From Candidatus Rokuibacteriota bacterium (GTDB lineage Bacteria > Methylomirabilota > Methylomirabilia > Rokubacteriales > CSP1-6): 64,000 bases of DNA. This document shows positions 786 through 38,690 of this stretch, piece by piece. The stretch's first letter is position 1, and each line of letters begins with the position of its first letter. Location: NCBI GenBank assembly GCA_003220315.1, contig QHSA01000133.1, positions 14,843-78,842 on the forward strand, read 5' to 3'. A program made the position numbers and the translations under genes. The notes beneath the pieces are model-generated. The model was not told the origin of the DNA, did no database searches, and saw nothing but the letters and a program-made list of their open reading frames with translations.

Positions 786-2072
786 CTAGACCTTGGGCCG
801 CGGGAACACGAACTTCTGCACCGCGGCGTCTCTGGGCCACACGACGACCGGCTTCTGGCCGAGGATCTGGATCATCGCCGTCGAGGCGTTCGGGTTGTCG
901 CCGATCTCGTTGAACACGACGGGACCCGCCGCCACGGCGAGGATGTCCTTGACGTTGGTCTTCTTCATCGCCTCCACGATGGCCTCCGGACCGTCGGGGT
1001 CCGCGAGCGCCTCCCGCCCGGCGCGCTCCAGGACGTCGGCGATGGTCAGCATCCCGTCGTACGACGCGACGGAGTTCGTGTCGAAGGTCTTTCCGCCCGA
1101 TCGCTTGCGGTACTCCTCCGCGACCGCCTGCGTGCGCGCCTTCTTGAAGTTGGGCCACGACGGCACGTTGTCCATCACGTACTCCAGATCGTCCTTGAGC
1201 GCCGCGAGTTGGCCCGCCTCGTAGAGACCGGGACTGCCGGGGCCGACGATGCCCATGACCTCGACACGCTGCTTCCGGATCTCGGGCAGCAGGAGCTGCG
1301 CGCTCGCCGGGCGCGTGATCGGCGCGATGACGTCGGGCTTCGCCGCCTTCGCCCGCGAGACCTCCGTGGAGAGGTCCGAGGGCGGCTCCGACCAGGGGAT
1401 GACCTCGACGATTTCCCACGACGGGCTCGCCGCTTTGTGGGCCGCGATGAACCCCTTCGACTGGTTCTGGCCGAAGAGGTCGTTCGTGTACATGAGCACG
1501 ACCCGCCTCGGCGCGACGCGGGCCGCCGCAAAGATCTCGTTGAAGTACCGGACCGCGAGGCGGCCGAAGCTCGAGCCGGTCGGGAAGTTCCGGTAGACGT
1601 ACTGGACCTTCTGCTGCCCGTCCTTCACCGCCTTCGCGACGTTCGCCGTGATCGGGTCGGCCGCCGCGATGTCCACGAGGAACGGCACGCGCTTCTGCTG
1701 GGCGACCGACACCATGGCCGCCGTCGAGCCGGAATCGAACGATCCCATGAGCATCCGCGCGCCCTGGTTGACGACGCGCTCCGCCTCGAGGCGCCCGAGA
1801 TCGGGCTTCGTCTGCGTGTCGCCCAGCAGCAGCTCCAGCTTCATCCCGCCGAGCGACTTGATGCCGCCCGCCGCGTTGATCGCGTCCGCGGCCATCTGAG
1901 CGCCGAGGCGGCACGCCTGGCCCGGCTCGGCGAGCGGGCCCGTCACGGGATGGATGACGCCAAGCTTGAAGGTCGCCGGCTGGGCGCGCAGCGCGCGCGG
2001 CGCGAAGCCGAGCGCCGCGCCCGTCGCGGTGGTGTTGAGGAACATCCGACGGCTGAGTCGGGTCAGTGCCAT
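786..2072 (-). CDS. Branched-chain amino acid ABC transporter substrate-binding protein (LivJ/LivK family) with Tat/Sec-type signal
   Basis: 428-aa ORF; N-terminal RRMFLNTTATGAALGF twin-arginine-like signal; periplasmic binding protein type-I fold motifs; same-strand neighbour of the permease. Confidence 0.9.
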   Translation of the reverse strand: MALTRLSRRMFLNTTATGAALGFAPRALRAQPATFKLGVIHPVTGPLAEPGQACRLGAQMAADAINAAGGIKSLGGMKLELLLGDTQTKPDLGRLEAERVVNQGARMLMGSFDSGSTAAMVSVAQQKRVPFLVDIAAADPITANVAKAVKDGQQKVQYVYRNFPTGSSFGRLAVRYFNEIFAAARVAPRRVVLMYTNDLFGQNQSKGFIAAHKAASPSWEIVEVIPWSEPPSDLSTEVSRAKAAKPDVIAPITRPASAQLLLPEIRKQRVEVMGIVGPGSPGLYEAGQLAALKDDLEYVMDNVPSWPNFKKARTQAVAEEYRKRSGGKTFDTNSVASYDGMLTIADVLERAGREALADPDGPEAIVEAMKKTNVKDILAVAAGPVVFNEIGDNPNASTAMIQILGQKPVVVWPRDAAVQKFVFPRPKV

Positions 2073-2147
2073 GCACTCCTCCCCCAGTGGTGTCGGTGGA
2101 TTATAGCCCCCTCGGCGGTCGAGTCGGATTCCGCGGGCGGACGTCGC

Positions 2148-3296
2148 TCAGTCGTCGAGCAGCTCCTTGGCGATGATCAGCCGCTGGATCTGGTTCGTCC
2201 CCTCGTAGATCTGCATGATCTTCGCGTCCCGCATGAAGCGCTCGACGGGGTACTCGCGTGTGTAGCCGTAGCCCCCGAAGACCTGGATGGCGTCGGTCGC
2301 GACCTTCATCGCGGCGTCGCCGGCCCAGCACTTCGCCATCGACGCCTCGTACGTGTTGCCTCGGATCCCCGCGTCCACCTGACGGGCGGCGTGGTGGACC
2401 ATGAGGCGCGCGGCGTGGACCTGCATCGCCATGTCGGCGAGCATGAACTGGATACCCTGAAAGGCTGCGACCGCCCGCCCGAACTGGTGTCGCTCCCGGG
2501 CGTACGCCACCGCGGCGTCGAGCGCCGCCTGCGCGATGCCGACGGCCATCGCGCCGGTCGCCGGGCGCGTGACGTCGAGGGTCTCCATGGCGATCGTGAA
2601 TCCCTCGCCCTCCTCGCCGAGGCGGTTCGCGACCGGTACGGCGCAGTCGGTGAAGTGGAGCGCCACGGTGGGCGAGGCTCGGATGCCCATCTTCTTCTCC
2701 TTCTTACCCACGGCGAAGCCGGGCATGCCTCGCTCGACGAGGAACGCGGTGACGCCCTTCGCGCGCAGCTTCGGGTCGATCGTGGCGAAGACGACGATGA
2801 CGTCGGCGTGGTCGCCGTTGGTGCACCACTGCTTGGAGCCGTTCAGGACGTAGCGGTCACCCCTCCGCACCGCGGTCGTCCGGAGGCCCGCCGCGTCCGA
2901 GCCGGCGCCGGGCTCCGAGAGCGAGTACGCGGCGAGGAGCTCGCCCGTCGCCAGGCGCGGCAGGTACTTCGTCTTCTGCGCTTCGGTGCCGAAGCGGAGG
3001 ATCGGGAGCCCGCCGAGCGGCTGGTCGAGGTACTGGGTCGCCGTCGCCGCGCACGCCCACGCGATCTCCTCGCACACGAGCGCGAGCGCGAGGCACCCCG
3101 CATCGGTCCCGCCGTACCGCTCGGGCACCCAGATCCCGTAGAGCCCCGCGTCGATGAGCGCTCGGATCGAGTCCTCGGGGTACTCCTCGGCGTCGTCGTA
3201 CCGGGCCGCGTGCGGCGCCACGCGCTCACGCGCGATCGTGCGCGCGAGGTCACGGATCAGCCGCTGGTCCTCGGTCAGGTAGAAGGCGTCGTTCAC
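2148..3296 (-). CDS. Acyl-CoA dehydrogenase
   Basis: ACAD motifs ([23 protein letters not shown], [12 protein letters not shown]). Start set at GTG 3296 ([11 protein letters not shown]) preceded by GAGGGGGA; the upstream ORF-track extension is spurious. Confidence 0.9.
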
Positions 3297-8159: not shown

Positions 8160-9323
8160 CTACTCGGCCCTGAGCCAGTCGGTGAGCTGCTTGAAGCGGC
8201 CCCGCTCCACGCGCACCCAGAACCCCTGCCGCTGGGTCTCGTGGTCCGGGCCGATCGTGACCGGCGGCAGGATGCCGCTCTCGAATCCACGGATCCCCTC
8301 GAGCGCGACGACGAGTCCCTCGCGCGTGAGGCGGCGGCCCGCGCGCGTGGCGCCCTCCGTGAAGAGCATCGCCGCGAAGTAGCCCGAGAGGGAGTAGCGG
8401 TTGGGCTCGTTCTTCGGGAGGTACGTCTTTAAGTCATCGCGATATCGCTTGACGCCCGGCCGGTCCGAGGTCAGCGGGTCGGGCCAGAGCGACAGTCCCT
8501 CGACGCCCTCCGACGCGTCTCCCGCGAGCGCGAGGTAACGCTCGTCGGTGAGCGGGCCGGAGGAGACCATGACGACCTCGCTCCAGCCGATCTTCTGGCG
8601 CTCGCGGAGCGCCTGGGCGCCCGGGCCGGGCGTGAGGACGAGGAAGAGCACGTCGGGCCTGGCCGCCTGAAGCTTGGCCATCTGGGCGCTCACGTCGGTG
8701 ACGCCGCGCTTGACCGACTCCGTCGCCACCAGCTTGAGCCCGTGGCGCCCGAGGTCTTTCTCGAGGGCGGTGAGGAACGACTTGCCGTACTCGTCGTCCT
8801 GGTAGAGCGTCGCGAACTTCCCGAACTTCCGCGCGCCCACGAGGTAGTCGATCATCATGCGCGACTGCCGGTCGTAGAGCGTCATCCCGCTGAAGACCCA
8901 CTTCCGCCCGCGCGTGATCGGCGAGCCCTGGAACGGGAAGAGCAGCGGGACACGGTTCTCCTCGAGGTACTCGAGCGTCGCCACCACCGGCGGCGTGCCC
9001 TGCGGGGCGATGATCGCGAAGACTCCATCCTGCTCGAGGAGCTTCCGCGTGTTGGCGACCGCCTCCTGCGGCTTGTAGCCGTCGTCGTAGTACACCGTCC
9101 GCACCTTCCGGCCGTGGATGCCCCCGCCGTCGTTGACGGCCTTGAAGTAGAGGTCCACCCCGAACCTCGTCGCCTGCTCGCCCGTGAAGGCGAGCGGGCC
9201 CGAGAACGAGTTCGAGCCGCCGAGCAGGATCTCGGCGTCGGTCACGCCCTGCTGCGCCCGGGCGGGCAGCGGAGTGGCGCCCGTGGTGAGGCCCGCGATG
9301 ACGAGGGCCAGGAGGACTCGCAT
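8160..9323 (-). CDS. Branched-chain amino acid ABC transporter substrate-binding protein (paralog 1)
   Basis: 387 aa, signal peptide MRVLLALVIAGLTTGATPLPARA; about 75% identical to the next gene upstream. Confidence 0.9.
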   Translation of the reverse strand: MRVLLALVIAGLTTGATPLPARAQQGVTDAEILLGGSNSFSGPLAFTGEQATRFGVDLYFKAVNDGGGIHGRKVRTVYYDDGYKPQEAVANTRKLLEQDGVFAIIAPQGTPPVVATLEYLEENRVPLLFPFQGSPITRGRKWVFSGMTLYDRQSRMMIDYLVGARKFGKFATLYQDDEYGKSFLTALEKDLGRHGLKLVATESVKRGVTDVSAQMAKLQAARPDVLFLVLTPGPGAQALRERQKIGWSEVVMVSSGPLTDERYLALAGDASEGVEGLSLWPDPLTSDRPGVKRYRDDLKTYLPKNEPNRYSLSGYFAAMLFTEGATRAGRRLTREGLVVALEGIRGFESGILPPVTIGPDHETQRQGFWVRVERGRFKQLTDWLRAE

Positions 9324-9344: not shown

Positions 9345-10505
9345 CTACTCCGACTTGAGCCAGTCGGTGAGCTGCTTGAAGCGGCCCCGCTCCACACGCA
9401 CCCAGACCGCCTGCTTTTGGGTCTCGTGGTCCGGGCCGATGGTGAGCGGCGGCAGGATCCCGCTCTCCCAGCGCTTGACGGACTGGAGGGCGGCGATCAA
9501 CGACTCGCGGGTCAGCCGGGCCCCCGCGCGCGTGGCGCCCTCCGCGAAGAGCATCGCGGCGAAGTAGCCCGCGAGGGAATACCGGTTGGGCTCGTTCCGC
9601 GGGAAGTAGTTCTGCATGTGCTCGCGGTAACGCCGCACGCCTGGCAGGTCCGAGGTGAGCGGGTCGGGCCAGAGCGACAGCCCCTCGACACCCTCGGCAG
9701 CGTCGCCGGCGAGCGAGAGATACCGCTCGTCGGTGAGCGGGCCGGTGGACACCATGAGCGTGTCGGTCCAGCCGATCTTCTGCCGCTCCCTGAGCGCCTG
9801 CGCGCCCGGGCCGGGTACGAGGACCAGGAAGGTCACCTCGGGCTTCGCGGTGTGGAGCTTGGCGATCTGGGCGCTCACGTCGGTGACGCCGCGCTTCACC
9901 GATTCGACCGCGAGCAGCCTGAGGCCGTGGCGCGCCAGGTCCTTCTCGAAGGCCGTGAGGAACGACTTGCCGTACTCGTCGTCCTGGTAAAGCGCGGCGA
10001 ACTTCCTGTACTTTCGCCGACCCACCAGATAGTCGATCATCATCCGTGACGAGCGGTCGCTCATCGTCATGCCCTGGAAGACCCAGTGCCGGCCGCGCGT
10101 GACGGTCGAGCTCTGGTACGGGAACAGGAGCGGGACACGGTTCTGCTCGAGGTACTCGAGCGTCGCCACGACCGGTGGGGCGCCCTGCGGGATGATGACC
10201 GCGAACACCTGGTCCTGCTCGACGAGCTTGCGTGTGTTTGCCACCGCGTCCTGCGGCTTGTAACCGTCGTCGTACCAGATCGTCCGCACCTTCCGGCCGT
10301 GGATGCCCCCGCCGTCGTTGACGGCCTTGAAGCCGAGATCCACCCCGAACTTCGTGATCTGCTCGCCCGTGAAGGCCAGCGGGCCCGAGAACGAGTTCGA
10401 GCCGCCGAGCAGGATCTCGGTGTCGGTGACGCCCTGCTCGGCGCGCGCCGGCGCCGCGACCATCACGACGAGGGCGAGCAGCGGAAGGAGCCATCCGGAT
10501 CTCAT
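9345..10505 (-). CDS. Branched-chain amino acid ABC transporter substrate-binding protein (paralog 2)
   Basis: Start ATG 10505 (MRSGWLLPLLALVVMVAAPARA), overlapped (ATGA) by the stop of the R1 mini-ORF; the ORF-track N-terminal extension is repeat-derived. Confidence 0.9.
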   Translation of the reverse strand: MRSGWLLPLLALVVMVAAPARAEQGVTDTEILLGGSNSFSGPLAFTGEQITKFGVDLGFKAVNDGGGIHGRKVRTIWYDDGYKPQDAVANTRKLVEQDQVFAVIIPQGAPPVVATLEYLEQNRVPLLFPYQSSTVTRGRHWVFQGMTMSDRSSRMMIDYLVGRRKYRKFAALYQDDEYGKSFLTAFEKDLARHGLRLLAVESVKRGVTDVSAQIAKLHTAKPEVTFLVLVPGPGAQALRERQKIGWTDTLMVSTGPLTDERYLSLAGDAAEGVEGLSLWPDPLTSDLPGVRRYREHMQNYFPRNEPNRYSLAGYFAAMLFAEGATRAGARLTRESLIAALQSVKRWESGILPPLTIGPDHETQKQAVWVRVERGRFKQLTDWLKSE

Positions 10506-10740
10506 GGTCGTTCTCCTTGTAGCGGGGTCCGCGAGCCCGGCGCCATCGGTGGGTGGCCTGAGACCAGGCGCGCCCCGGCTCCGGTCCCCCTGCCGCCGCT
10601 CATTCCAGTCCACGCCGCGAGCCCGGCGCCATCGGTGGGTGGCCTGAGACCAGGCGCGCCCCGGCTCCGGTCCCCCTGCCGCCGCTCATTCCAGTCCACG
10701 CCGCGAGCCCGGCGCCATCGGTGGGTGGCCTGCCCACCGT
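10502..10740 (-). repeat. R1-family tandem repeat (86-bp unit x ~2.35) forming chained mini-ORFs between livM and the SBP gene
   Basis: Units 10531-10616 and 10617-10702, plus a partial unit 10703-10732 that lies inside the livM 3' coding end. The livM TGA (10686-10688) overlaps ATG 10689 of a 28-codon mini-ORF (MSGGRGTGAGARLVSGHPPMAPGSRRGLE). Its TGA overlaps ATG 10603 of a 33-codon mini-ORF whose TGA (10502-10504) overlaps the SBP ATG 10505. Confidence 0.8.
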
Positions 10741-13014: not shown

Positions 13015-14120
13015 TGGATCGCCTTCCGCCACATCGGCGAGGCCCACCCGTCCCGGAGGAACGCAAGAATCTCGCGCCGGCTCAGGTCGCCGAGCCCCAG
13101 GTGCTCGAGCGCGCGGCCGCGGCCCGAGAGCTCGCGCCCGAGCAGCGCGCCGTACACGAGAAGGAGCCCCGTGATCGCGGGCGTCACCGCGCCCGCCGCC
13201 CGCGCGGCCGACTCGAGGAGCGCCAACCCGAGAACCGCGTCCTCGGTGACGTAGCGGTGCTCGAACGTGACGATCTCGCTCCAGAGGCCGCTCGCCACGA
13301 GTTTCGTCTTCGCCCCGGCGCCGTAGAGCCCCTCGGCCGCCCGCGTCTCGTCGTAGTACGTCGCGAGCTCGTAGTGGGGCGCCGCGTAGCCCCAGCCCCG
13401 GCGAGTCGCGACCCGCTCGGCGTCCACGGCGTCGATGAGCCGGCGCACGCTCGGCGTCGTGCCAGCCGCGTGGACGTCGAAGCTGCCACCGTCGATCGCG
13501 CCGGTATTCAGGAGAACGAGCGGGGGGTGGATCACGGGCCCGGCGTTGGTGAGCGCGACATCGAGGGAGTCCGCGCACGGGCGGACGGCCGGGAAGAGCT
13601 CGGCGAGCCGCGGCAAGACGCGCGGGCCCCGCGACGCGGGAAACACGCCGATCGGCAGGTTGGCGGCGCGCAGGGGCGCCTTGACGACCGCGGGCGCCGT
13701 CTTCCGCGTGAGATAGGGCAGCGTCCCGGTCTCGGCGAGGGCGAGCGGTAAGGGGCCGCCGGCGCGCGCAATCCCCCGCGCCATCGCGTAGCTACCGAGC
13801 GTTCCCGGTGTGAGCAGGATGATCTGTCGGTCGTTGAGACACGGCGCCAGGCGCTTGGCGAGCTCCTCGTGGCTCGTCGCGGGTAGCGGGACGATCAGGA
13901 CCTCCGCGCCCTCGACCGCCTCGCCGAGGTCGGTCGTGGCGCGCTCGAGCTGCGCCGTCCCGTGCCGCCCCTCGGCGTCGAGCGTGATCGTCGCGCGCTC
14001 CACGAGCGGGCCGAGCGCGTCCGCCGAGCGGCTCCAGAGCCTGACGCGGTGGCCGGCCAGCGCGAGATCGGCCGCCGTCGCGAAGCCACCATTGCCCGCG
14101 CCCAGGACTGCTAGCTTCAC
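13011..14120 (-). CDS. NAD/NADP-dependent octopine/nopaline (opine) dehydrogenase family oxidoreductase
   Basis: GTG 14120 gives MKLAVLGAGNGGFATAADLALAGHRV, a classic Rossmann N-terminus of the opine dehydrogenase family. The GTG is overlapped by the TGA of the R2 mini-ORF. Confidence 0.7.
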   Translation of the reverse strand: MKLAVLGAGNGGFATAADLALAGHRVRLWSRSADALGPLVERATITLDAEGRHGTAQLERATTDLGEAVEGAEVLIVPLPATSHEELAKRLAPCLNDRQIILLTPGTLGSYAMARGIARAGGPLPLALAETGTLPYLTRKTAPAVVKAPLRAANLPIGVFPASRGPRVLPRLAELFPAVRPCADSLDVALTNAGPVIHPPLVLLNTGAIDGGSFDVHAAGTTPSVRRLIDAVDAERVATRRGWGYAAPHYELATYYDETRAAEGLYGAGAKTKLVASGLWSEIVTFEHRYVTEDAVLGLALLESAARAAGAVTPAITGLLLVYGALLGRELSGRGRALEHLGLGDLSRREILAFLRDGWASPMWRKAIQ

Positions 14121-14228
14121 AGACTCGCCTCGCCTGTGGCTGCGGCTCGCACTGCCACGACGTTCATAAGCTCGCCTCGCACGGCGGGGCCCCAGCCCCA
14201 CGACGTGCTGCGGCTCGCACTGCCATCA
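14117..14228 (-). repeat. R2-family element forming two chained mini-ORFs (20 and 16 codons)
   Basis: The CoA-transferase TGA (14226-14228) overlaps ATG 14226 (TGATG). Mini-ORF1 MAVRAAARRGAGAPPCEASL ends with TGA 14164-14166 overlapping ATG 14167 of mini-ORF2 MNVVAVRAAATGEASL. Its TGA 14117-14119 overlaps the GTG 14120 of the next gene. Confidence 0.7.
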
Positions 14229-19995: not shown

Positions 19996-20378
19996 GTCTC
20001 CCTCGCCTCCTTCGTGAACGCGGCGACGATGTCCGGCAGCGGTGTGCCCATCGGGAACACGCGCGCGACGCCGAGCTTCCGGAGCTCCTCCACGTCGCGC
20101 GGCGGGATGATGCCGCCCACGACGACCCTGACCTCCCCGGCGCCGTGCGCCCGCAGCCCCTCGAGCACGCGGCGCGAGAGGAGCACGTGGGCGCCCGACA
20201 GCACCGAGAGCCCGACCACGTCTACGTCCTCCTGGATCGCCGCCCGCACGATCTCGTCCGGCGTCCGCTTGAGCCCCGAGTAGACGACCTCGACCCCCGC
20301 GTCGCGGAGCGCCTGCGCCACGACCTTCGCGCCGCGGTCGTGGCCGTCGAGCCCCGGCTTGGCGATCAGGACCTTCAC
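19992..20378 (-). CDS. Cobalamin (B12)-binding domain subunit of acyl-CoA mutase
   Basis: 128 aa; DGHDRG B12-binding motif; GTG start 20378 overlapped by the TGA of the R1 mini-ORF; its TGA overlaps the mutase ATG (ATGA). Confidence 0.9.
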   Translation of the reverse strand: MKVLIAKPGLDGHDRGAKVVAQALRDAGVEVVYSGLKRTPDEIVRAAIQEDVDVVGLSVLSGAHVLLSRRVLEGLRAHGAGEVRVVVGGIIPPRDVEELRKLGVARVFPMGTPLPDIVAAFTKEARET

Positions 20379-20652
20379 TGTAGCGAAGTCCGCGAGGCCG
20401 GCGCCATCGGTGGGTGGCCTGAGACCAGGCGCGACCCGGCTCCGGTCCCCATGTCGTGTCTCATTCCAACAGGGTCCGCGAGGCCGGCGCCAGCGGTGGG
20501 TGGCCGTCGGACTGACCGCCCTTCGAGCGCGGGCTTCGCCCGCGCAACCGATCCTGGGGGAGGCTCGGAGGGGGCCGTCGAGGCCCCCTTCGATGAGGTG
20601 GGTGGCCTGAGACCAGGCGCGACCCGGCTCCGGTCGTCCCGGCGCTATTCAT
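20375..20652 (-). repeat. R1-family element (two units, the distal one interrupted by a nested R3 element) forming 63- and 29-codon chained mini-ORFs
   Basis: ATG 20652 lies 2 codons before the metallophosphoesterase TAG (ATGAATAG). Mini-ORF1 reads through R1-partial, R3 and R1 to TGA 20461-20463, which overlaps ATG 20464 of mini-ORF2 (MRHDMGTGAGSRLVSGHPPMAPASRTSLQ). Its TGA 20375-20377 overlaps GTG 20378 of the B12 subunit. Confidence 0.75.
20496..20607. mobile_element. R3 MITE-like element (92 bp) with 10-bp direct target duplication GTGGGTGGCC, nested in R1
   Basis: Insert 20506-20597 flanked by GTGGGTGGCC at 20496-20505 and 20598-20607. Two internal hairpins (GCGCGGGC-TTC-GCCCGCGC; GGGGGCC-GTCGA-GGCCCCC). 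A near-identical copy (3 differences) sits at the same position of a diverged R1 at 27445-27556. Confidence 0.7.
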
Positions 20653-21124
20653 TCGGGAGCTCGAGGATGCGGCCCCGCACGCGCCCATCCTCGACGGTGA
20701 GTCGTCCCACTGCCACGGGAAGCTTGAAGCGGCGGGGGCCGGCGCTTCCCGGATTGAAAAACAGCACGCCGTCCCGCTCCTCCTGCCGCGGCTGGTGACT
20801 GTGGCCGGAAATGACCACGCCGAACCCCGCCGCGCGCGGGTCAAGGCCCAGCGCCGTCACGTCGTGCAGCACGTACAGGAGCACGCCCCCGATCTCGAGA
20901 ACCTGAGTGGACGGAACCTTCTCGGCCCACGCGCCGCGATCATTGTTGCCACGAACGGCCGTCACCGGCGCGATCGCGCCGAGTCGCTCCAGCACGTCCG
21001 GCGTGCCGATGTCCCCGGCGTGGACGATCGCATCGACGCCCCGGAGCGCCACGACCGCCTCGGGCCTCAACCGTCCGTGAGTGTCGGAGATAACGCCCAC
21101 CGATCGCACGCGCGAGCCGCTCAT
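20645..21124 (-). CDS. Metallophosphoesterase (YfcE/MJ0936 family)
   Basis: 159 aa from ATG 21124 (ATGA overlap with upstream DUF35 gene); GVISDTHG ... GDIG ... GNND ... GHSH motifs. Confidence 0.8.
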   Translation of the reverse strand: MSGSRVRSVGVISDTHGRLRPEAVVALRGVDAIVHAGDIGTPDVLERLGAIAPVTAVRGNNDRGAWAEKVPSTQVLEIGGVLLYVLHDVTALGLDPRAAGFGVVISGHSHQPRQEERDGVLFFNPGSAGPRRFKLPVAVGRLTVEDGRVRGRILELPNE

Positions 21125-22645: not shown

Positions 22646-23604
22646 TGGTACGCAGCGTCCTCTCGCACCCGCCTGAGCTGCCGGAGCAGCGCACGGACCT
22701 TGGCGGTCTCGAACGTCTCGCGCCGGTCGCCGGCGTAGTCGAAGAACCCGCGCCCCGTCTTCGGGCCGAGCTCTCGCCTCGCGATCTTCTCCTCGACCAG
22801 GCGCGCCGGCTTGAAGCGGTCGTCACCGAGCGCGTCGGCGAGGAAGCGGCTCGCACGGTGGAGGATGTCCACGCCGCCCCAGTCGATGAACTCGAAGATC
22901 CCGACCTGCGCGTAACGGAAGCCCATCCCCGCCCTGAACGCCCGGTCCACGTCCTCGGGCGACGCGACGCCCTCCTCGACGAGGCGGACCGCCTCGTTCA
23001 TGAGCAACGCCTGTAGCCGCGGCCCGATGAACCCCGGCGAGTCGGCGCACCGCACGGGGACCTTCCCGAGCGCCTCGAGGACCTCGATGGCGCGGTCGAC
23101 GACGGCGGCCGTGGTCGCCTGGCCGGCGACGACCTCCACGAGCGGGACGATGTGGGCGGGGTTGAGCCAGTGCGCGACGAGGAAGCGCTCCGGACGCTCT
23201 ACCGCGTCGGCGAGGTGCCTGGGCGCGATCGTCGAGCTCGTCGAGGCGATGATCGCCCCGGCGCCGACGCGGGTCGAGAGGCGCCCCAGCACCTCGCGCT
23301 TGAGGTCGAGCAGCTCCGGCAGCGCCTCCTGCACGAAAGCGCACGCGTCGAGGCCGTCGAGCCCCGTGCGGTCCTCGATCCGGTCGAGCGCCGACGCGAC
23401 GTCGCCGCCCGCGATCACACCCTCCTCGGTCATGAGCCGGAGGTCGCGGGTGATCTCGCGCCGCGCGTCGGCGAAGACGGCGCGCCGCTCCTCGGGCGTG
23501 CGGGCCTTGACGTCGACGAGGAGGACACGGCGCCCGCCCAAGGCGAAGGCGAGCGCGATCTGGCGCCCGATCCTCCCGGGGCCGAGAACCGCGACTGTAT
23601 TCAT
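22642..23604 (-). CDS. 3-hydroxyacyl-CoA dehydrogenase (NAD-binding, HBD/FadB-type)
   Basis: MNTVAVLGPGRIGRQIALAFALGG Rossmann N-terminus; C-terminal 3HCDH dimerisation domain; ATG 23604 is the last start of the R2 tandem array. Confidence 0.9.
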   Translation of the reverse strand: MNTVAVLGPGRIGRQIALAFALGGRRVLLVDVKARTPEERRAVFADARREITRDLRLMTEEGVIAGGDVASALDRIEDRTGLDGLDACAFVQEALPELLDLKREVLGRLSTRVGAGAIIASTSSTIAPRHLADAVERPERFLVAHWLNPAHIVPLVEVVAGQATTAAVVDRAIEVLEALGKVPVRCADSPGFIGPRLQALLMNEAVRLVEEGVASPEDVDRAFRAGMGFRYAQVGIFEFIDWGGVDILHRASRFLADALGDDRFKPARLVEEKIARRELGPKTGRGFFDYAGDRRETFETAKVRALLRQLRRVREDAAYQ

Positions 23605-23868
23605 AGACTCGCCTCGCCGGCGGCTGCGGCTCGTACGACCACGTTCATAGACTCGCCTCGCCGGCGGCTGCGGCTCGTACGACCACGCTCATAGACTCGC
23701 CTCGCCGACGGCTGCGGCTCGTACGACCACGTTCATAGACTCGCCTCGCCGACGGCTGCGGCTCGTACGACCACGTTCATAGACTCGCCTCGCCGGCGGC
23801 TGCGGCTCGTACGACCACGTTCATAGACTCGCCTCGCCGACGGCTGCGGCTCGTACGACCACGTTCAC
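23602..23868 (-). repeat. R2-family 44-bp tandem array (6 ATG units plus 1 GTG unit), each unit a 15-codon mini-ORF
   Basis: Unit CATAGACTCGCCTCGCCG(G/A)CGGCTGCGGCTCGTACGACCACG(T/C)T at 44-bp period, with start codons at 23604, 23648, 23692, 23736, 23780, 23824 (ATG) and 23868 (GTG). On the minus strand each unit reads (M/V)NVVVRAAA(A/V)GEASL-TGA, with the TGA overlapping the next ATG (ATGA). The thiolase TGA (23865-23867) overlaps the first GTG; the last TGA overlaps the dehydrogenase ATG. Confidence 0.85.
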
Positions 23869-26184: not shown

Positions 26185-27344
26185 CACGCGAACGCCTGAC
26201 CACGGTCCCAGTCGAGGTCGCGGTCGATCACGACGCGCAGGATCTCCGAGGTCCCGCCACCGGGCAAGAGGAAGCGCGCGTCACGGAAGTAGCGCTGGAT
26301 CGGGTACTCCATCGCGAGTCCGTACGAGGCGAAGATGCGCGCCGCCTCGTCCGTGACGCGCACCGCCATCTCCGACGCGAAGAGCTTCACCATCGCCGCC
26401 TCACGGGTGATCGCGCGTCCGGCGTCGAGCCGGGCCGCGGCCTGGTAGGTCATGAGCGTCGCCGCGTGGAGCCGGGTGAGCATGTCGGCGAGCTTGAAGC
26501 CGATCGCCTGGTGCTCGACGATCGGCTTCCCGAACGCGACCCGCTCCCGGGCGTAGGCGAGCGCGGCCGTGTACGCGGCGCGCGCGATCCCGACGGAGAT
26601 CGCCGCGGTCATCACCCGGATCTCCGAGAGGACGGACCCGATCTTCTCGACACCACCCGTTTCACCACCGAGGAGATACTCGGGAGGAACTTCCACGTCG
26701 TCGAGCCGGATCTCCCCCGTCACGGAACCACGCACCGCCATCTTGTCGATCGACTTCCCGAGCGCGATCCCGCGCATCGCCGAGCGGTCCAGGAGGAAGA
26801 GCGCGATGTTCTTCATGCCGCGCTCGGCAGAGGTCTTCGCCGCGACCGTCAGGACGTCGGCCACCGGCGCGTTGGTCACCCAGGTCTTGCCCCCGCGGAG
26901 CACCCAGCGGTCGCCGCGTCGCTCGGCGCGCGTGGTGATGTTGGCGACGTCGGAGCCGGCGCCGGGCTCGGTGAGCGCGAAGGTCGCGACCAGGTCGCCC
27001 CGGAGCGCGGGCACGAGGTACTTCCGGCGGAGCTCTTCGGTGCCGTACTTGTAGATGAAGTAGGTCCCCATCAGCGACTGCATGGCCACCGTCGCGGCCA
27101 CCGAGAGCGAGCCCCGGGCGAGCTCCTCGGCGAAGAGACAATAGGTGACCATGTCCGCGTCGGCGCCGCCGTACGCCGCCGGGTAGCGGAGACCGAGATA
27201 GCCGAGCTCGCCGAGGCGCTTGAACAGCGTCCACGGGAACTCCGCGCGCTCGTCGATCGCCTCTGCGGCCGGCACCACCTCGGCGTCGACGAGCCGCGCG
27301 ACCGCCTTGCGAAATTCTTCTTGCTCTGGCGTGAAGGCGATCAT
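26184..27344 (-). CDS. Acyl-CoA dehydrogenase
   Basis: ATG 27344 (MIAFTPEQEEF) overlapped by the TGA of the R1 mini-ORF; ACAD motifs throughout. Confidence 0.9.
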   Translation of the reverse strand: MIAFTPEQEEFRKAVARLVDAEVVPAAEAIDERAEFPWTLFKRLGELGYLGLRYPAAYGGADADMVTYCLFAEELARGSLSVAATVAMQSLMGTYFIYKYGTEELRRKYLVPALRGDLVATFALTEPGAGSDVANITTRAERRGDRWVLRGGKTWVTNAPVADVLTVAAKTSAERGMKNIALFLLDRSAMRGIALGKSIDKMAVRGSVTGEIRLDDVEVPPEYLLGGETGGVEKIGSVLSEIRVMTAAISVGIARAAYTAALAYARERVAFGKPIVEHQAIGFKLADMLTRLHAATLMTYQAAARLDAGRAITREAAMVKLFASEMAVRVTDEAARIFASYGLAMEYPIQRYFRDARFLLPGGGTSEILRVVIDRDLDWDRGQAFA

Positions 27345-27625
27345 TGTAACGGGGGCCGCGGGGCCGCCACACTCCGTGGGTGGCCTGAGACAAGGCGCGA
27401 CCCGGTTCCGTTCCGTAACGGGGGCCGCGGGGCCGCCACACTCCGTGGGTGGCCGTCGGACCGACCGCCCTTCGAGCGCGGGCTTCGCCCGCGCCACCGA
27501 TCCTGGGGGAGGCTCGGAGGGGGCCGTCGAGGCCCCCTTCGATGAGGTGGGGGGCCTGAGACGAGGTGCGACCCGGGCCCGTTCGGCACGCCGCCGCGTT
27601 TCATTCCACCGGGCGCGGCACTCAT
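27341..27625 (-). repeat. R1-family element (two units, the distal one carrying a nested R3) forming a 94-codon mini-ORF
   Basis: ATG 27625 overlaps the hyuB TGA (ATGA); the ORF reads through R1, R3 and R1 (…HLVSGPPPHRRGPRRPPPSLPQDRWRGRSPRSKGG…RLVSGHP…) to TGA 27341-27343, which overlaps the ACAD ATG 27344. Confidence 0.75.
27445..27556. mobile_element. R3 MITE-like element (92 bp) with 10-bp target duplication (GTGGGTGGCC / GTGGGGGGCC), nested in R1
   Basis: Insert 27455-27546; differs from the 20506-20597 copy at 3 positions, whereas the flanking R1 sequences differ extensively. Confidence 0.7.
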
Positions 27626-29427
27626 GACGTCTTCCGCTCCGCTCTCATCGCGCCGCGGAGCTCGCGCGTGGCGTGCTCGTCCACACGAAGGTCGACCCCC
27701 GTCCCCGCGATCACGACGCCGTAGTCCGCGCGCGCCGCCGCGATCGAGACGTAATCGTCCAGGACGTCCTCGAGCACGCGCCGGGGGTCGCGCTCGAGCG
27801 GGTCACCGTAGCCCCCGGCGCCGGGCTGCTGGAACGAGATGACGTCACCGAACGCGAACTCGCGAGAGGCCTTCCCGTGGACGAGCTGTTCGTCCGGGCC
27901 GGGATTGATCACCGTTCGGCCGAGCGTTCCCGGCCGGCCACCGAACAGGCCGTATGGCGCGAACGTCTGCCGGTCGGCGAGATTCGTGAGCTTGCCGTCG
28001 TCGGCGAGGAAGCGCATGTCGCGGCGGACGCCGCAGCCGCCCCGGAACTTCCCCGCGCCGGCGGAGTCACGGAGCAGCTCGAAGCGCTCGACGATGATCG
28101 GCAGGTTCGCCTCCTGCGCCTCGACGGGGATGTTCGAGGCGTTGAACGCCCACGCCATCGCCTCGCACCCGTCCCGCGTCGCGCGCGCGCCCGTGCCCGA
28201 GAGCACCAGCTCGTACGCGACGAAGCGGCGCCGACGCGCGCGGTCCGAGCCGCCGAAGGTCGGATTCGCCATGTGCGACGCGGCCGCCGCCACTCGGTCG
28301 GGCACCGCCCGCGCGAGCGCGCCGATCACCGACTCGAACGTGCGGTAGCAGATGATCGCGCGCGGCCCCCCGCCCGCCGGCGGCCGCGGGTTGAGGAACG
28401 ACCCCTCGGGCGCCGTCACGGTGATGGGGCGCAGCGCGCCGTCGTTCATCGGGCCGAACGGGTCGGTCAGGCACTTGACCGCGGCATACGAGTAGGAGCG
28501 CGTGTAGTTGATGTAGGAGTTCATGCCCGACGCGGTCTGCGGGCTCGAGCCCCCATAGTCGATCACCATGCCGTCGCCCGCGACCGTCACCGCGACGGCC
28601 ACGCGGAGCGGCGCGGTCCCCGGCCCCGAGTCGTCCATGAAGTCCTCGAACGTGTAGACGCCGTCCGGGACGGCCCGGATCGCGGCGCGCATGTTCGCCT
28701 CGGTCCGCTCGATGATCTCGTCCATCGCGCGGACGAGCAGGTCGCGGCCGTAGCGCGCGCCGAGCTCTTGGAGTCTCAGCTCCCCGACGCGCAACGCGCT
28801 CCGCTGGGCGCGCAGGTCGCCGAGGACCTTCTCGGGCGTGCGCGTGTTCGCGGCGATGATCCCGACGATCCCAGCGTCCTCCTCGTACGCCCTCCACACC
28901 TTGGTCGGCGGGATACGGAGCCCTTCCTGGAAGTAGTCGAAGATGCCCTCGACGCCCTGGCTGCCGGGGCGCTGGCCGCCGACGTCGGTGTGGTGGAGGA
29001 TGTTCACCGCGAAACCGACCAGCTGACCCTCGTGGAACGCGGGCTGCGTGACGAAGAAGTCCGGCAGGTGCCCCGAGCCGAGCAGCGGATCGTTCATGAG
29101 AATGGCATCGCCCGGACGCAGCGACTCGACGGGGTGCGCGGCGAGCGCGTTCTTGACGGCGACGGACATGGCCCCCATGTGCCCGGGACTGTACGGCCCC
29201 TGAGCGACCATGCGCCCCTCGGGGTCGAAGACCGCCACGGAGAAGTCCTGGCCCTCACGCGCCTGCTCGGAGTAGGCGGTCTTATGGACCGTCGTCCCGA
29301 TCTCGACCGCGATCGACTGGAGCGCGCCCCAGATGACGCCGAGGGTGATCGGGTCCGTTGTCGCGGAGGCGGCGAGGCCGGCGCACTCCGTAGGTGGCGT
29401 GCTGTGGGTGCGGTCTGGCTCCGTCAT
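27622..29427 (-). CDS. hyuB: Hydantoinase B / 5-oxoprolinase subunit (HyuB family)
   Basis: 601 aa from ATG 29427 (ATGA overlap with hyuA); DPITLGVIWGALQSI... HyuB N-terminal motif. The first ~20 codons (MTEPDRTHSTPPTECAGLAAS) are encoded by a partial R1 unit. Confidence 0.85.
   Translation of the reverse strand: MTEPDRTHSTPPTECAGLAASATTDPITLGVIWGALQSIAVEIGTTVHKTAYSEQAREGQDFSVAVFDPEGRMVAQGPYSPGHMGAMSVAVKNALAAHPVESLRPGDAILMNDPLLGSGHLPDFFVTQPAFHEGQLVGFAVNILHHTDVGGQRPGSQGVEGIFDYFQEGLRIPPTKVWRAYEEDAGIVGIIAANTRTPEKVLGDLRAQRSALRVGELRLQELGARYGRDLLVRAMDEIIERTEANMRAAIRAVPDGVYTFEDFMDDSGPGTAPLRVAVAVTVAGDGMVIDYGGSSPQTASGMNSYINYTRSYSYAAVKCLTDPFGPMNDGALRPITVTAPEGSFLNPRPPAGGGPRAIICYRTFESVIGALARAVPDRVAAAASHMANPTFGGSDRARRRRFVAYELVLSGTGARATRDGCEAMAWAFNASNIPVEAQEANLPIIVERFELLRDSAGAGKFRGGCGVRRDMRFLADDGKLTNLADRQTFAPYGLFGGRPGTLGRTVINPGPDEQLVHGKASREFAFGDVISFQQPGAGGYGDPLERDPRRVLEDVLDDYVSIAAARADYGVVIAGTGVDLRVDEHATRELRGAMRAERKTS
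29381..29427 (-). repeat. Partial R1 unit fused to the 5' end of hyuB
   Basis: GCCGGCGCACTCCGTAGGTGGC... encodes the PPTECAGLAA peptide shared with other R1 frames; ends with ...CATTCCA at the hyuA stop. Confidence 0.6.
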
Positions 29428-31487
29428 TCCAACTCCACCAGGAGACTCGCGTACTCGTCCACAGCCGCCGAGGCGCCGGGCGGAAGGACGGTCGTGGACT
29501 CGCGCTCCTCCACGATCGCCGGCCCCGTGAGGCGCGCCCCTGCCGCGAGCGCGTAGCGGTCGTAGACCGGCGTGTCCACGTAGCCGCGCGCCTCGGGAAA
29601 GTAGGCGCGACGGCTCCCCTTCACCGCGCGGCCACGGTCCTCGGTCTGCGCCTTCGCGAGCGCGATGCGGGGCGAGCCGCCGACCGCCGAGAGCTTCCAC
29701 GTGACGACCTCCACGGGCTCGCGCGGGTTCGCATAGCCGTAGCGGGCGGCGTAGACCTCGTCGAACGTCGCGCGCACCCGGGCGAGCGCGGCGGCGTCGA
29801 GCTCGCCCGACGGCACGGGAACGGTCAGCTCGTACCCCTGGCCCACGTAGCGCGCGTCGGCCGAGCGCGCCACGTGGATCTCACCGGCGACGGCGGACTC
29901 GCGGACGACCTCCGTCGCCTGCCGCGCCATCTCCGCGTACATCCGACCGAGCTGCGCGAGATCCACGGCGTCGAGCCGGCGGACGTAAGTGCGCGCCACG
30001 TCGAACCGGAGCTCCGCGGCCAGCAGGCCGATCGCGGCCGTGACCCCGGCGGCCGCGGGGAGAATCACGCGCGGGATGCCGAGCGCCTGGGCGAGTCGGC
30101 AGCCGTGCACGGGGCCCGAGCCGCCGAAGGCGACGAACGTGAGGTCGCGCGGGTCGCGGCCGCGCTCGATCGAGACCACGCGGGTCGCCAGCTCCATGTT
30201 GGTGGTGACGATCGCGTGGATCCCCCACGCCGCGTCCTCGAGCGACAGGCCGAGCGGCGCCGCGACCTTCGTCTCGATCGCCCGCGTCGCCGCCGCCGGC
30301 TCGAGCTTGACCGAGCCGCCCGCGAAGTAGTCGGGGTTGATATAGCCGAGCACCACGTTCGCGTCGGTGACCGTGGGCTCGACACCACCGCGCCCGTAGC
30401 AGACGGGCCCCGGCACCGACGAGGCGCTCTCCGGGCCCACGGCGATCACGCCGAGCCGCGCGCGGGCGATCGAGCCGCCGCCCGCACCGATCTCGACGAG
30501 GTCGATCGCCTGAATGTTCATCGGCAGGCCGCTGCCCGGGGCGTTGTTGACGCGGTGGAGCTCGAACGCCGTCGTCGTGGAGGGCCGCCCGCGCTCGACG
30601 AGTGCGAGCTTGGCGGTCGTGCCCCCCATGTCGAACGCGATCAGGTCGCGGTGGCCGGTGAGCTCGCCGTACGCCGCCGCCATCAGGGCGCCCGCGGCGG
30701 GACCCGACTCGATCATCCGCACGGGGTAGCGCTGCATCGCCTCCGCCGTCGCGACGCCGCCGGAGGACTGCATGACGAAGAGCCGGCCCCGGTAGCCGCG
30801 CTCGGCCAGGGCGGCGGCGAGCCCGCGCAGGTACTCGCGCACGGCCGTCATCACGTAAGCGTTGACCACGGTCGTCGAGGTCCGCTCGTATTCGCGGAAG
30901 GTCGGCGACACCTCGTGCGACATCGTCACCGTCACGTGCGGAGCCTCTTCTCCGACGATCTCCGCCAGGCGCCGCTCGTGGAGGGGGTTCAGGTACGCGT
31001 GCAGGAGGCAGATCGCGAGGGTCGTGACCTCGCGCGCGACGAGCTCGCGGACGGCCCGACGGGCGTCGGCCTCGTCGAGCGGGCTCCGCACCGAGCCGTC
31101 CGCCAGGACGCGCTCGGTCACCTCGCCGATCAACCGGCGAGGGATCAGCGGCGCGGGCTTCTCGATCTGGAGGTCGTAGACCTGGTAGCGCTTCTCGCGC
31201 CCGATCAGGAGCACGTCGCGGAAGCCCCGCGTGGTGAGGAGCCCGACGCCTCGCGCCTTGCGCTCGATGACGACATTGGAGCCGAGTGTCGTCCCGTGGA
31301 CCGCCTGGGCCACGTCGCGCCACGTGACACCGCTCCGGGCGACGAGCTCGTCGAGCCCCGCGAGGCAGGCCTCGGAGGGGTCCGGGTAGGTCGTCAGCCG
31401 CTTCGCGATGAGGAGCTCCCCCGACGGCGACTGCAGCACCAAGTCGGTGAACGTCCCCCCGACGTCGAACCCGATCCGGTAGGGCAT
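29424..31487 (-). CDS. hyuA: Hydantoinase A / 5-oxoprolinase subunit (HyuA family)
   Basis: 687 aa; MPYRIGFDVGGTFTD N-terminus; ATG 31487 overlaps the TAA of the R1 mini-ORF (TAATG). Confidence 0.9.
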   Translation of the reverse strand: MPYRIGFDVGGTFTDLVLQSPSGELLIAKRLTTYPDPSEACLAGLDELVARSGVTWRDVAQAVHGTTLGSNVVIERKARGVGLLTTRGFRDVLLIGREKRYQVYDLQIEKPAPLIPRRLIGEVTERVLADGSVRSPLDEADARRAVRELVAREVTTLAICLLHAYLNPLHERRLAEIVGEEAPHVTVTMSHEVSPTFREYERTSTTVVNAYVMTAVREYLRGLAAALAERGYRGRLFVMQSSGGVATAEAMQRYPVRMIESGPAAGALMAAAYGELTGHRDLIAFDMGGTTAKLALVERGRPSTTTAFELHRVNNAPGSGLPMNIQAIDLVEIGAGGGSIARARLGVIAVGPESASSVPGPVCYGRGGVEPTVTDANVVLGYINPDYFAGGSVKLEPAAATRAIETKVAAPLGLSLEDAAWGIHAIVTTNMELATRVVSIERGRDPRDLTFVAFGGSGPVHGCRLAQALGIPRVILPAAAGVTAAIGLLAAELRFDVARTYVRRLDAVDLAQLGRMYAEMARQATEVVRESAVAGEIHVARSADARYVGQGYELTVPVPSGELDAAALARVRATFDEVYAARYGYANPREPVEVVTWKLSAVGGSPRIALAKAQTEDRGRAVKGSRRAYFPEARGYVDTPVYDRYALAAGARLTGPAIVEERESTTVLPPGASAAVDEYASLLVELE

Positions 31488-31567
31488 TATTGGTGGCCTG
31501 AGACGAGGTGCGCCCCGGCTCCGTTCCGCCCGCCGCTTCCCATTCCAGCGAGCCGCAAGGCCGGCAT
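31487..31567 (-). repeat. Single R1 unit forming a 26-codon mini-ORF between the GntR gene and hyuA
   Basis: ATG 31567 lies 1 nt after the GntR TAG (31569-31571); MPALRLAGMGSGGRNGAGAHLVSGHQ-TAA, with the TAA overlapping the hyuA ATG. Confidence 0.65.
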
Positions 31568-33051: not shown

Positions 33052-34200
33052 CTAGGCGCGCACCAGCTCGCGCGCGATCACGACCCGCTGGATCTGGTTC
33101 GTGCCCTCGTAGATCTGCGTGATCTTGGCGTCGCGCATGAAGCGCTCGACGGGATACTCGCGCGTGTAGCCGTAGCCGCCGAAGATCTGCACGGCGTCCG
33201 TCGTGACCCGCATCGCCGCGTCGCCCGCGAAGCACTTGGCCATCGACGACTCGAACGCCGTGCGGGGAGCGCCGCGGTCCAGGAGCGCTGCGGCGTGGTG
33301 GACCATGAGGCGCGCCCCGTGCGTCTGCATCGCCATGTCCGCGAGCATGAACTGAATCCCCTGGAAGGCCGCGATCGGCTGGCCGAACTGCTGCCGCTCT
33401 TTGGCGTAGGCGACGGCGGCGTCGAGCGCGGCCTGGGCGATCCCCACGGCCTGGGCGCCCACGGCCGGGCGCGAGCCGTCCAGGACGCGCAGCGCGATCC
33501 TGAACCCCTCGCCCTCGTCGCCGAGACGGTTCTCGACGGGCACCTCGCAGTCGCTCAGATGGAGCGCAACCGTCGGGGACCCGCGAATCCCCAGCTTGCG
33601 CTCGAGCTTGCCGAGGGCGAACCCGGGGAACGTCGGCTCGACCAGGAACGCGGTGACCCCGCGGTGGCCCTTGCCGCGGTCCACGGTGGCGAAGAGGGTG
33701 ATGACGCCGGCGTGACTGCCGTTCGTGACCCACATCTTGGTCCCGTTGAGAAGGTAGCGGTCGCCCCGGCGCACGGCGGTCGTCGTGAGCGCGCCGGCGT
33801 CGGACCCGGCGCCAGGCTCCGAGAGGGAGAACGCCGCGGTGATCTCGCCCGCAGCGAGCCGCGGCAGGTAGCGCCGCTTCTGCGCCTCGCTGCCTGCCGT
33901 GACGATCGGGAACCCGCCGGTGTACTGGACGAGATAGATGACGGCGGTGGACGCACACGCCCAGGCAATCTCCTCGACCGCCAGGCAGAAGGCGAGCGCG
34001 CCGAGCCCGGCGCCGCCGTAGGCCTCGGGGATGTAGAGCCCCATGAGCCCCTGCTCGCCGAGTGACGTGAGCTGGTCGGTCGGATACGTCTCCGTCTCGT
34101 CCACCTGCGCGGCGAGTGGCGCGACCCGTTCGCGGGCGAGAGCCCGGACGAGGTCGCGCACCTGGCGCTGCTCGGCGGTCAGATCGAAGAGGTCGCGCAT
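33052..34200 (-). CDS. Acyl-CoA dehydrogenase
   Basis: Start ATG 34200 ([14 protein letters not shown]); about 65% identical to the ACAD at 2148-3296. Confidence 0.9.
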
Positions 34201-38597: not shown

Positions 38598-38690
38598 TGC
38601 GTCGGAATCACCGCTGTTCGAGCGCCGGCTCCGCCGGCGCAACCGATCCGGGGGGAGGCATCGGAAGGGGGGCGAAGCCCCCCTCCGAGT
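38598..38690. repeat. R3-like hairpin element at convergent gene ends (probable bidirectional terminator)
   Basis: GTCGGAATCACCGCTGTTCGAGCGCCGGCTCCGCCGGCGCAACCGATCCGGGGGGAGGCATCGGAAGGGGGGCGAAGCCCCCCTCCGAG; same architecture as R3, with compensatory stem changes (GCGCCGGC/GCCGGCGC versus GCGCGGGC/GCCCGCGC). Confidence 0.6.

Follow-up and report, generated by a model that had tools for sequence, protein, structure and literature searches.

Among described bacterial repeats, the closest counterparts of the element reported here are MIRUs (mycobacterial interspersed repetitive units), which have units of 40-100 bp, often repeated in tandem and in differing numbers, and are located between the genes of operons; their open reading frames (ORFs) overlap the flanking stop and start codons, and their insertion is believed to take place at start codons, a -4 nt coupling leaving expression little disturbed (Supply et al. 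1997, as summarised in PMC12548453 and PMC3184786). Overlaps of the ATGA or TGATG type support termination-reinitiation (PMC6728339; reviewed in PMC12548453). We analysed a 64,000-nt stretch of contig QHSA01000133.1 from a Candidatus Rokuibacteriota bacterium (hereafter the window), in which an 86-bp tandem repeat lies between livM, which encodes a LivM-type permease, and the gene for a periplasmic substrate-binding protein (SBP). We consider it probable (about 0.7) that this repeat belongs to a MIRU-like intercistronic family of Rokubacteria (Methylomirabilota) that keeps translation continuous across the DNA it adds.

The likeness to MIRUs is one of architecture, not of sequence comparison: every architectural feature that we tested is shared, and the host is not. 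The Rokubacteria units (86 or 87 nt) occur in arrays of one to four, vary in number (2.4 vs 1.4 at the livM-SBP junction), lie between co-directional genes in the orientation of transcription, and carry small ORFs with 4-nt overlaps to the flanking stop and start, so that the same rationale may be proposed, namely that coupling is kept and the insertion disturbs expression little. They differ in being hosted by Rokubacteria/Methylomirabilota rather than Mycobacterium (M. tuberculosis complex, M. leprae), in that several unrelated Rokubacteria families (86/87-nt and 44-nt) share the rule and other repeats are nested in frame, in the position of the window copy inside the livM 3′ end instead of at a start codon, and in that no target-site duplication was clearly visible. 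We found nothing relevant on these repeats in Rokubacteria in the literature searched; the repeat family is new, its design principle being already known from MIRUs.

A second point of comparison is provided by overlapping stop/start gene pairs and synthetic bicistronic design (BCD) leaders, in which the stop of a short ORF overlaps the next start and delivers ribosomes to it. The native livH-livM (TGATG) and livM-SBP (ATGA, as in the repeat-free stretch L137) junctions are of this overlapping type. In the Rokubacteria element the short ORFs differ from these in coming from a dispersed repeat, in being chained in series, and in being known here from sequence alone.

A relay of short ORFs between livM and the SBP gene

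Tandem Repeats Finder (TRF) reports a perfect array at 10529-10732, with a period of 86, 2.4 copies, 100% matches and a score of 408, and both halves of the unit (30 nt and 43 nt) recur as exact matches, of which 0.00 are expected from shuffles of the window. Every gene around the array is on the minus strand. The array had been described in an initial annotation of this DNA, whose coordinates and minus-strand reading we confirm, together with a relay of ATGA overlaps leading from livM through two small ORFs (sORF1 and sORF2) to the SBP gene; all three overlaps are present, and the design recurs throughout the family. The livM gene, which starts with an ATG at 11651 that has one base in common with the livH stop (TGATG) and whose product matches PF02653 over residues 25-287 of 321, ends in GGA CTG GAA TGA, and this TGA (10688-10686) overlaps the ATG of sORF1 (10689-10687). 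The sORF1 TGA (10602-10600) is in turn overlapped by the sORF2 ATG at 10603, and the sORF2 TGA (10504-10502) by the ATG (10505-10503) of the SBP gene, the product of which matches PF13458 (E = 6e-66).

Some details of that annotation require revision. Of the lengths given for the small ORFs, 28 and 33 codons, the second stands, while sORF1 has 29 sense codons, as in the annotation's own codon list. The livM 3′ end is indeed repeat-encoded, but over at least 14 codons (GHPPMAPGSRRGLE, 10730-10689) rather than the last 10; the tail peptide is WAGHPPMAPGSR, and the peptide LVSGHPPMAPGSR is common to LivM and the small ORFs. The statement that RLVSGHPP recurs at every locus of the repeat is approximately right, the variants in the window being RLVSGHPP, RLVSGHPR, HLVSGPPP and HLVSGHQ*.

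We propose that an element placed between co-directional genes, in the orientation of transcription, would never leave ribosomes without a reading frame on the inserted DNA. A single frame, which we call frame F and define as that reading ...LVSGHP..., is open across the unit, from an ATG or GTG that overlaps the incoming stop (NTGA) to a TGA overlapping the start of the unit or gene that follows. Ribosomes finishing livM would accordingly terminate and re-initiate at ATGA three times, passing from livM to the 29-codon ORF, the 33-codon ORF and finally the SBP gene, and the relay would preserve the translational coupling of an ancestral livM-ATGA-SBP junction, with the small-ORF peptides as probable by-products. 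We infer that the small ORFs are translated, that termination-reinitiation links them, and that insertions are tolerated and persist in operons because translation stays continuous.

Phase and orientation across the family

A 24-nt degenerate core was scanned against one genome per species from 185,579 species genomes, among which exact matches occur only in metagenome-assembled genomes (MAGs) of Rokubacteria/Methylomirabilia, and against metagenome contigs, where at least 120 stretches were obtained. After duplicate removal, the MAG and soil-metagenome matches listed comprise 132 distinct arrays, with one core in 95, two in 31, three in 5 and four in 1. For the 300 nt on either flank, coding strand and frame were called from three-base GC periodicity (GC3), independently of the element. 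Individual stretches are denoted below by L numbers and LivM homologues by P numbers.

The downstream gene is co-oriented with the element in 110/115 arrays, and at least three of the five exceptions (L048, L077, L099) are insertions of an IS110-family insertion sequence (IS) in the repeat; the upstream gene is on the element strand in 97/108. Frame F stops exactly at core+56 in 84/115 arrays; in 94/115 an ATG or GTG overlaps this stop as NTGA, and in 4 others the overlap is of the TAATG type. In 73/86 arrays the start so overlapped is in the coding frame called from GC3, compared with about one third by chance, and where the protein is recognisable this codon is its natural N-terminus, as for GatC (MITREEV...), the B12-binding subunit (M/VKVLIAKPGLDGHDRG) and HyuA (MPYRIGFDVGGTFTD). 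At the other end, the upstream stop directly overlaps the frame-F start in 50/97 arrays (49 by NTGA, 1 by stop-NTG) and lies within 40 nt of it in 32 further arrays. Moreover, the frame-F start is kept at -31 or -19 in 47/51 non-redundant units.

The phase of the element is maintained through changes in its length. In canonical arrays the downstream coding frame is F+2 in 78/81 cases, and this phase is kept in 7 of 8 independent loci with a non-canonical terminal unit (chance ~0.003), that is, one whose frame-F stop is shifted by -33, +3, +6, +12, +36, +48, +60 or +108 nt from core+56, in some cases through the nesting of other repeats. Between units, a spacing of 86 nt gives an NTGA hand-over at 12/12 junctions and one of 87 nt gives in-frame read-through at 17/17, while spacings of 84, 135 and 171 read through and one of 188 hands over by NTGA. 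The relay is maintained across the nested inserts (135, 171, 188). A gapless chain of ORFs connects upstream stop to downstream start in 35 of 49 fully resolved arrays, or 46 of 49 if gaps of up to 30 nt are allowed, and in 0/49 when the spacers are reverse-complemented. We regard these patterns as strong sequence evidence for selection on phase and orientation.

Several observations nonetheless weigh against the proposed relay. Copies share their ATGA ends by descent, and the raw counts are therefore not independent events; independent support comes only from the length variants, the unit-length classes and the nested inserts. Open frames are common in GC-rich DNA, and mononucleotide-shuffled spacers with the flanking ATGAs kept still yield a gapless chain in ~14/49 arrays, though we set this null aside as too lenient, since it retains both the flanking ATGAs and the phase, and take the reverse-complement control as the informative one. 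Gaps in the chain occur in 14/49 arrays, and there are copies that break the rule (L051, L089 and L113, in which the F ORF ends ~200 nt inside the next gene). The core GTCTCAGGCCACCCAC is strongly conserved, beyond what an open frame needs, in copies that were partly selected on this core. At the window locus, the perfect identity of the units in metagenome-derived sequence could reflect an error of copy number, collapse or expansion during assembly being possible for any single contig. Finally, the SBP ATG has a native AAGGAGA 7 nt ahead of it, and SBP may start on its own, with the relay perhaps not needed for it. Because the gene keeps its own Shine-Dalgarno sequence, the relay may matter more for ribosome cover of the 200-nt insert than for initiation.

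Many of the same points would suit a selfish or neutral, untranslated repeat, whether related in kind to miniature inverted-repeat transposable elements (MITEs) or repetitive extragenic palindromic (REP) sequences or a minisatellite spread by recombination, in which the ATGA ends and open frame are inherited and have no role in expression. Relatedness of the copies by descent, the scarcity of stops in GC-rich sequence, the gapless chains of shuffled spacers, the SBP gene's own Shine-Dalgarno and a peptide that is not conserved (see below) would all be compatible with it. We consider such a repeat unlikely, given that orientation is almost always that of the genes, that the terminal ATG or GTG is the true start of unrelated genes in 73 of the 86 arrays, and that length variants and nested inserts keep phase in all but one of the independent loci. 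The matching solutions of the 86-nt and 87-nt spacings, the result of the reverse-complement control, the recurrence of the design in an unrelated 44-bp family, and the lack of terminal inverted repeats or conserved hairpins also argue against it.

In a further group of loci (L041, L078, L103, L125 and L102; L030 and L072) frame F runs stop-free into the downstream gene, remaining open for ~740 nt of the adjacent gene in L041, L103 and L125. The downstream genes of these read-through loci, read by eye, encode a short-chain dehydrogenase/reductase (SDR)-type dehydrogenase (..RVAIVTGGTGALG) and a membrane protein; they have no start codon of their own nearby, and the repeat may supply a start and an N-terminal extension of ~25 residues.

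Peptide, RNA structure and promoter content

Across the 51 non-redundant units, the variability of frame F is lowest at the third codon position (0.144 vs 0.222 and 0.223), and differences from the consensus comprise 74 synonymous and 422 non-synonymous changes, a synonymous share below that of the other two frames. This pattern is the opposite of coding constraint and indicates no selection on the peptide. The least probable of the readings weighed here is that of functional small proteins or tails (29-33 aa, ...RLVSGHPP...), which would act as peptides or tag neighbouring proteins at the C- or N-terminus. That the frame is kept open, that the same peptide core recurs, and that it is fused to LivM here and enters what by eye is an SDR-type N-terminus in L041, L103 and L125 could be read in its favour; set against this are the substitution pattern, the lack of any family in a Pfam scan of the two small peptides, and the use in the core of codons (TCA, CCA) that are rare for a GC-rich genome, such that nucleotides rather than residues appear conserved.

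Another reading is that the operon transcript contains a structured RNA element (a site of processing or of protein binding, a stabiliser or an attenuator), of which the core would be the functional part. The near invariance of the core CCTBGTCTCAGGCCACCCAC (partly an effect of how copies were found), an orientation matching transcription, and imperfect palindromes within each unit are features that such an element could have. Structural analyses do not bear it out, and we judge it very unlikely. A search of the window with Rfam 15 yielded 0 matches at the gathering score and, at a permissive E <= 10, nothing but miRNA-model noise (E = 0.67-3.1); the array folds on neither strand better than shuffles (z = 0.84 and 0.06); and alifold on the 51 units gave -1.3 kcal/mol for the sense and -4.0 for the antisense strand, with no compensatory pairs and no consensus structure. 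The mean minimum free energy (MFE) of the units is -34.4, against -36.6 for shuffles, and there is no terminator-like site at the locus.

These results also bear on the affinities of the element with other short repeats. Like REP sequences and bacterial interspersed mosaic elements (BIMEs), enterobacterial repetitive intergenic consensus (ERIC) sequences and MITEs, it is short, abundant, intergenic, often found in operons and a landing site for ISs (here of the IS110 family, at a fixed CT). Those groups are defined by palindromes or terminal inverted repeats, neither of which was found in the Rokubacteria element: an inverted-repeat scan detected no terminal inverted repeats and only weak internal palindromes with 70-73% complementarity, and the ends are direct (..TGGAATGA and ..TACAATGA; AATGA), not inverted. 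We thus reject membership of REP/BIME, there being no conserved stem-loop palindrome, no covariation in the 51 units and an MFE not below that of shuffles, and of MITEs, the ends of which would be inverted.

A promoter carried by the insert has also to be considered, in which the conserved 3′ ...GCTACAAT would act as a -10 box driving the downstream gene independently. TACAAT is similar to a -10 hexamer and most terminal units conserve it; in addition, promoter activity has been reported for the MIRU array that separates senX3 from regX3 in M. tuberculosis (PMC4213456). The hexamer, on the other hand, overlaps the start codon (TACAATGA), such that a transcript would begin inside the gene, and it is broken in the window copy (CTACAAGGAG). 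Furthermore, a promoter and terminator scan at the locus found neither, nor a -35 partner, though for Rokubacteria such a scan is a weak test of promoters. We hold this explanation to be highly improbable.

History of the livM-SBP junction

Comparison with repeat-free relatives indicates how the junction arose. Among 120 LivM homologues retrieved, most close orthologues (85-92% identity) are 306-307 aa long and end in ...GGIASAFRFLKGDRV/A* (also written ...LFMPGGIASAFRFLKGDRV/A*), without the tail, and a GHPP...GLE/GPE tail occurs only in P0001, P0002 and P0064. At the DNA level the repeat is seen in the window, in L067/L122 and in L011, the LivM tail of which matches that of P0064. The initial annotation had held that the repeat supplies the livM 3′ end, and had suggested orthologues as the means of checking it; we found no orthologue with the same tail and no repeat, the tail being confined to the few homologues whose ending resembles the repeat.

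Where the repeat is missing, LivM orthologues end ...FRFLKGDRV*. In L137, which retains a native ATGA, the junction is CTG AAA GGA GAC AAG GCA TGA, with the SBP ATG overlapping the TGA, and reads ...CTGAAAGGAGACAAGGCATGAGACTC; AAGGAGA is also present in L139 and L141. L139 has no element and its LivM ends ...RRLRASWADQGE*, while L141 has a short footprint (GGCCACCCA..GGGACCCG) through which LivM reads in frame to the native ATGA. In the window, the end of sORF2, CTA CAA GGA GAA CGA CCA TGA (LQGERP*), is homologous to the native ends LKGDKA* and RQGDRA*, and sORF2 thus consists of repeat sequence followed by the displaced native livM 3′ end (QGERP*). From this homology it follows that the ATGA at the SBP start and the AAGGAGA preceding it are ancestral, that the element entered about five codons before the livM stop, and that LivM gained a repeat-encoded tail and stop while its old tail came to close the last small ORF. 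Our comparison therefore indicates that the element entered the livM 3′ end, adding a 14-residue tail and a new stop. Two earlier suggestions are modified accordingly: the native 3′ end of livM was displaced by the repeat, but survives as the last codons of sORF2 instead of being lost, and the final TGA does overlap the SBP ATG, in an ATGA that is ancestral and not made by the repeat.

Unit number differs between relatives, as a check proposed with the annotation reveals: L067 and L122, with flanks identical to those of the window, have 1.4 units where the window has 2.4, one unit fewer. In L011, from a different MAG, there is one unit with a nested 48-nt insert, still ending at ATGA.

Addition of residues by a repeat within coding sequence recalls the Rickettsia palindromic elements (RPEs), which are palindromic, insert in frame within genes and add residues without destroying host proteins. 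The LivM tail is comparable, but the Rokubacteria element is mainly intercistronic, with tails only where a neighbouring gene reads in.

LivM C-termini are very variable in this clade. P0041 carries a three-fold GAASQPP repeat (21-nt tandem), P0049 and P0060 are apparent LivM-SBP fusion calls, and several others (among P0024, P0038, P0047 and P0048) have tails resembling decayed copies of the element (AGHPRTGPP.., AGYPGTAPP..).

Implications

MIRUs have so far been the one textbook case of a repeat that enters operons without breaking translational coupling. Our findings suggest that the same solution also exists in a soil phylum that is uncultured and unrelated, where two or more sequence families and over 100 copies show it, and this points to a general rule for which insertions survive in tightly coupled operons. 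In practical terms, gene callers will mis-set the ends of repeat-adjacent genes, as the variable tails of LivM, the extended N-termini and the apparent fusions illustrate; the arrays offer natural markers of variable number by which Rokubacteria strains could be tracked; and the units are candidate bicistronic coupling parts for GC-rich hosts.

A bolder and rather doubtful extension is that several unrelated Rokubacteria families (86/87-nt, 44-nt and nested modules) have converged on NTGA ends and an open frame as actively spreading, start-codon-anchored 'portable translational couplers'. Such couplers would supply an upstream stop, a start, and delivery of ribosomes to the downstream gene; candidate routes for their spread would be target choice at ATGA junctions or gene conversion between half-units, and many downstream genes without a Shine-Dalgarno of their own would depend on the repeats for initiation.

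Consensus and other copies in the window

The sense-strand consensus is ~87 nt long and reads (G)TGGAATGA-RAAGCGACATGCGGAACGGAGCCGGGTCGCRCCTCGTCTCAGGCCACCCAC-(variable 9 nt)-CGGCCTCGCGGCCCCCG-CTACAATGA, with internal units ending ...GGTGGAATGA in place of the terminal-unit end. Boundary mapping places 5′ boundaries in a cluster at (S)TGGAATGA and a second at GGCCACCCAC, and scattered 5′ truncations of the type left by retro-elements were not seen, so we reject that origin. Certain 5′ ends (ATGAATAG) terminate two of the incoming frames and provide a start for the third.

The window contains 11 nhmmer hits, which fall into 5 loci and are all on the minus strand, that of the genes (Table 1). The second locus begins at the TAG that ends a metallophosphoesterase gene and reaches the GTGA at which a B12-binding mutase subunit starts; the third is crossed by a single ORF, which continues up to the ATGA where an acyl-CoA dehydrogenase-like gene (MIAFTPEQEEF...) starts. 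Composites of half-unit, nested hairpin element and unit are common to loci at 89% identity.

Table 1 Coordinates of the array, the genes and ORFs that it connects, and further copies of the repeat in the window
Feature	Position	Strand	Basis
86-bp tandem array, 2.4 identical units	10529..10732	- (sense strand = minus)	TRF, repeat search, exact pattern matches
livM, LivM-type permease, 321 aa	10686..11651	-	translation, PF02653, homologues
Partial repeat unit, forming the last 14 livM codons and stop, GHPPMAPGSRRGLE*	10686..10730	-	sequence, translation, tail missing in 306-307-aa orthologues
First ATGA hand-over, livM stop to sORF1 start	10686..10689	-	sequence and translations
sORF1, 29 codons and TGA, wholly repeat-encoded, MSGGRGTGAGARLVSGHPPMAPGSRRGLE*	10600..10689	-	translation
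Second ATGA hand-over, sORF1 stop to sORF2 start	10600..10603	-	sequence and translations
sORF2, 33 codons and TGA, ending ...SRTPLQGERP*	10502..10603	-	translation; comparison with repeat-free L137, L139, L141
Native livM 3′-end remnant, with Shine-Dalgarno-like AAGGAGA (10518-10512) and ATGA junction (10505-10502)	10502..10518	-	L137, L139, L141 comparison
Periplasmic substrate-binding protein (SBP) gene, 386 aa, signal peptide	9345..10505	-	translation, PF13458
Second locus: two units, half-unit and nested 89-nt hairpin element	20375..20657	-	nhmmer, sequence, ORFs
Third locus: units and nested 89-nt element	27340..27609	-	nhmmer, sequence
Degenerate copy, now the 5′ coding end of a hydantoinase B-like gene after GGAATGA (...DPITLGVIWGAL...)	29358..29431	-	nhmmer, sequence
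Truncated copy, open frame ending in TAA that overlaps the ATG (TAATG) of a hydantoinase A-like gene (MPYRIGFDVGGTFTD)	31489..31547	-	nhmmer, sequence

The nested 89-nt element is found at 20505-20593, 27454-27542 and 38600-38688, and in part at 56110-56155. It contains two strong GC hairpins, GGGGGCC..GGCCCCC and GCGCGGGC-GAA-GCCCGCGC; where nested it is flanked on both sides by GGCCACCCAC(C) and adds 102 nt, with the result that the open frame is kept.

A 44-bp repeat, unrelated to the 86-nt element, shows the same NTGA-to-NTGA design at two places in the window. At 23600-23867 (minus strand) an upstream GTGA stop is followed by six 15-codon ORFs (MNVVVRAAAVGEASL*) chained by ATGA, the last ATGA being the start of an NAD-binding dehydrogenase (MNTVAVLGPGRIG), and at 14116-14225 the order is GTGA, a 21-codon ORF, ATGA, a 15-codon ORF and the GTGA start of VKLAVLGAGNGG. 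Members of this family are nested inside the 86-nt element in L003, L009 and L011.

Mobility and insertion sites

AATGA is present at both ends of the element, but is part of its consensus, and no target-site duplication was found at the livM site in comparison with the repeat-free L137 and L139. Nor was a virgin empty site for a canonical copy found among the B12-binding mutase orthologues, L142, L144 and L145 all carrying the element and L143 a remnant; in the latter, positions 660-705 hold a 10-codon ORF between two ATGA overlaps (ATGAGCCGCTCGCGCCCCGTTGCGGAAGTATGA), apparently what decay has left of the element's 3′ end. The data agree equally well with transposition and with recombination between half-units combined with unequal exchange.

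Sequence shared after the element in L048, L077, L099 and L132 was considered as a mobilising partner gene and rejected, since it proved to be an IS110-family IS that had landed in the repeat. In L077 this IS occupies 1508-2978 and encodes a 409-aa DEDD-type transposase (ORF 1527-2756, minus strand), and it lies ahead of gatC, its insertion point within the 3′ end of the repeat being a fixed CT (CCCCG-CT-CCAATGA). As it is found after the element in four separate contexts, it looks like a repeat-targeting IS.

Gene context

From about 5700 to 34400, a span of ~29 kb of the window, the minus strand holds nearly all likely genes, which include LIV-type transporter, acyl-CoA dehydrogenase-like, hydantoinase-like and B12-mutase-related genes; many gene junctions there are overlapping or occupied by repeats. 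After the SBP gene at the junction comes a paralogous second SBP gene (8160-9323), with stretches that are 81-90% identical, and a further pair of stretches, 2160-2685 and 33064-33589, is 78-85% identical over a separation of 30.9 kb.

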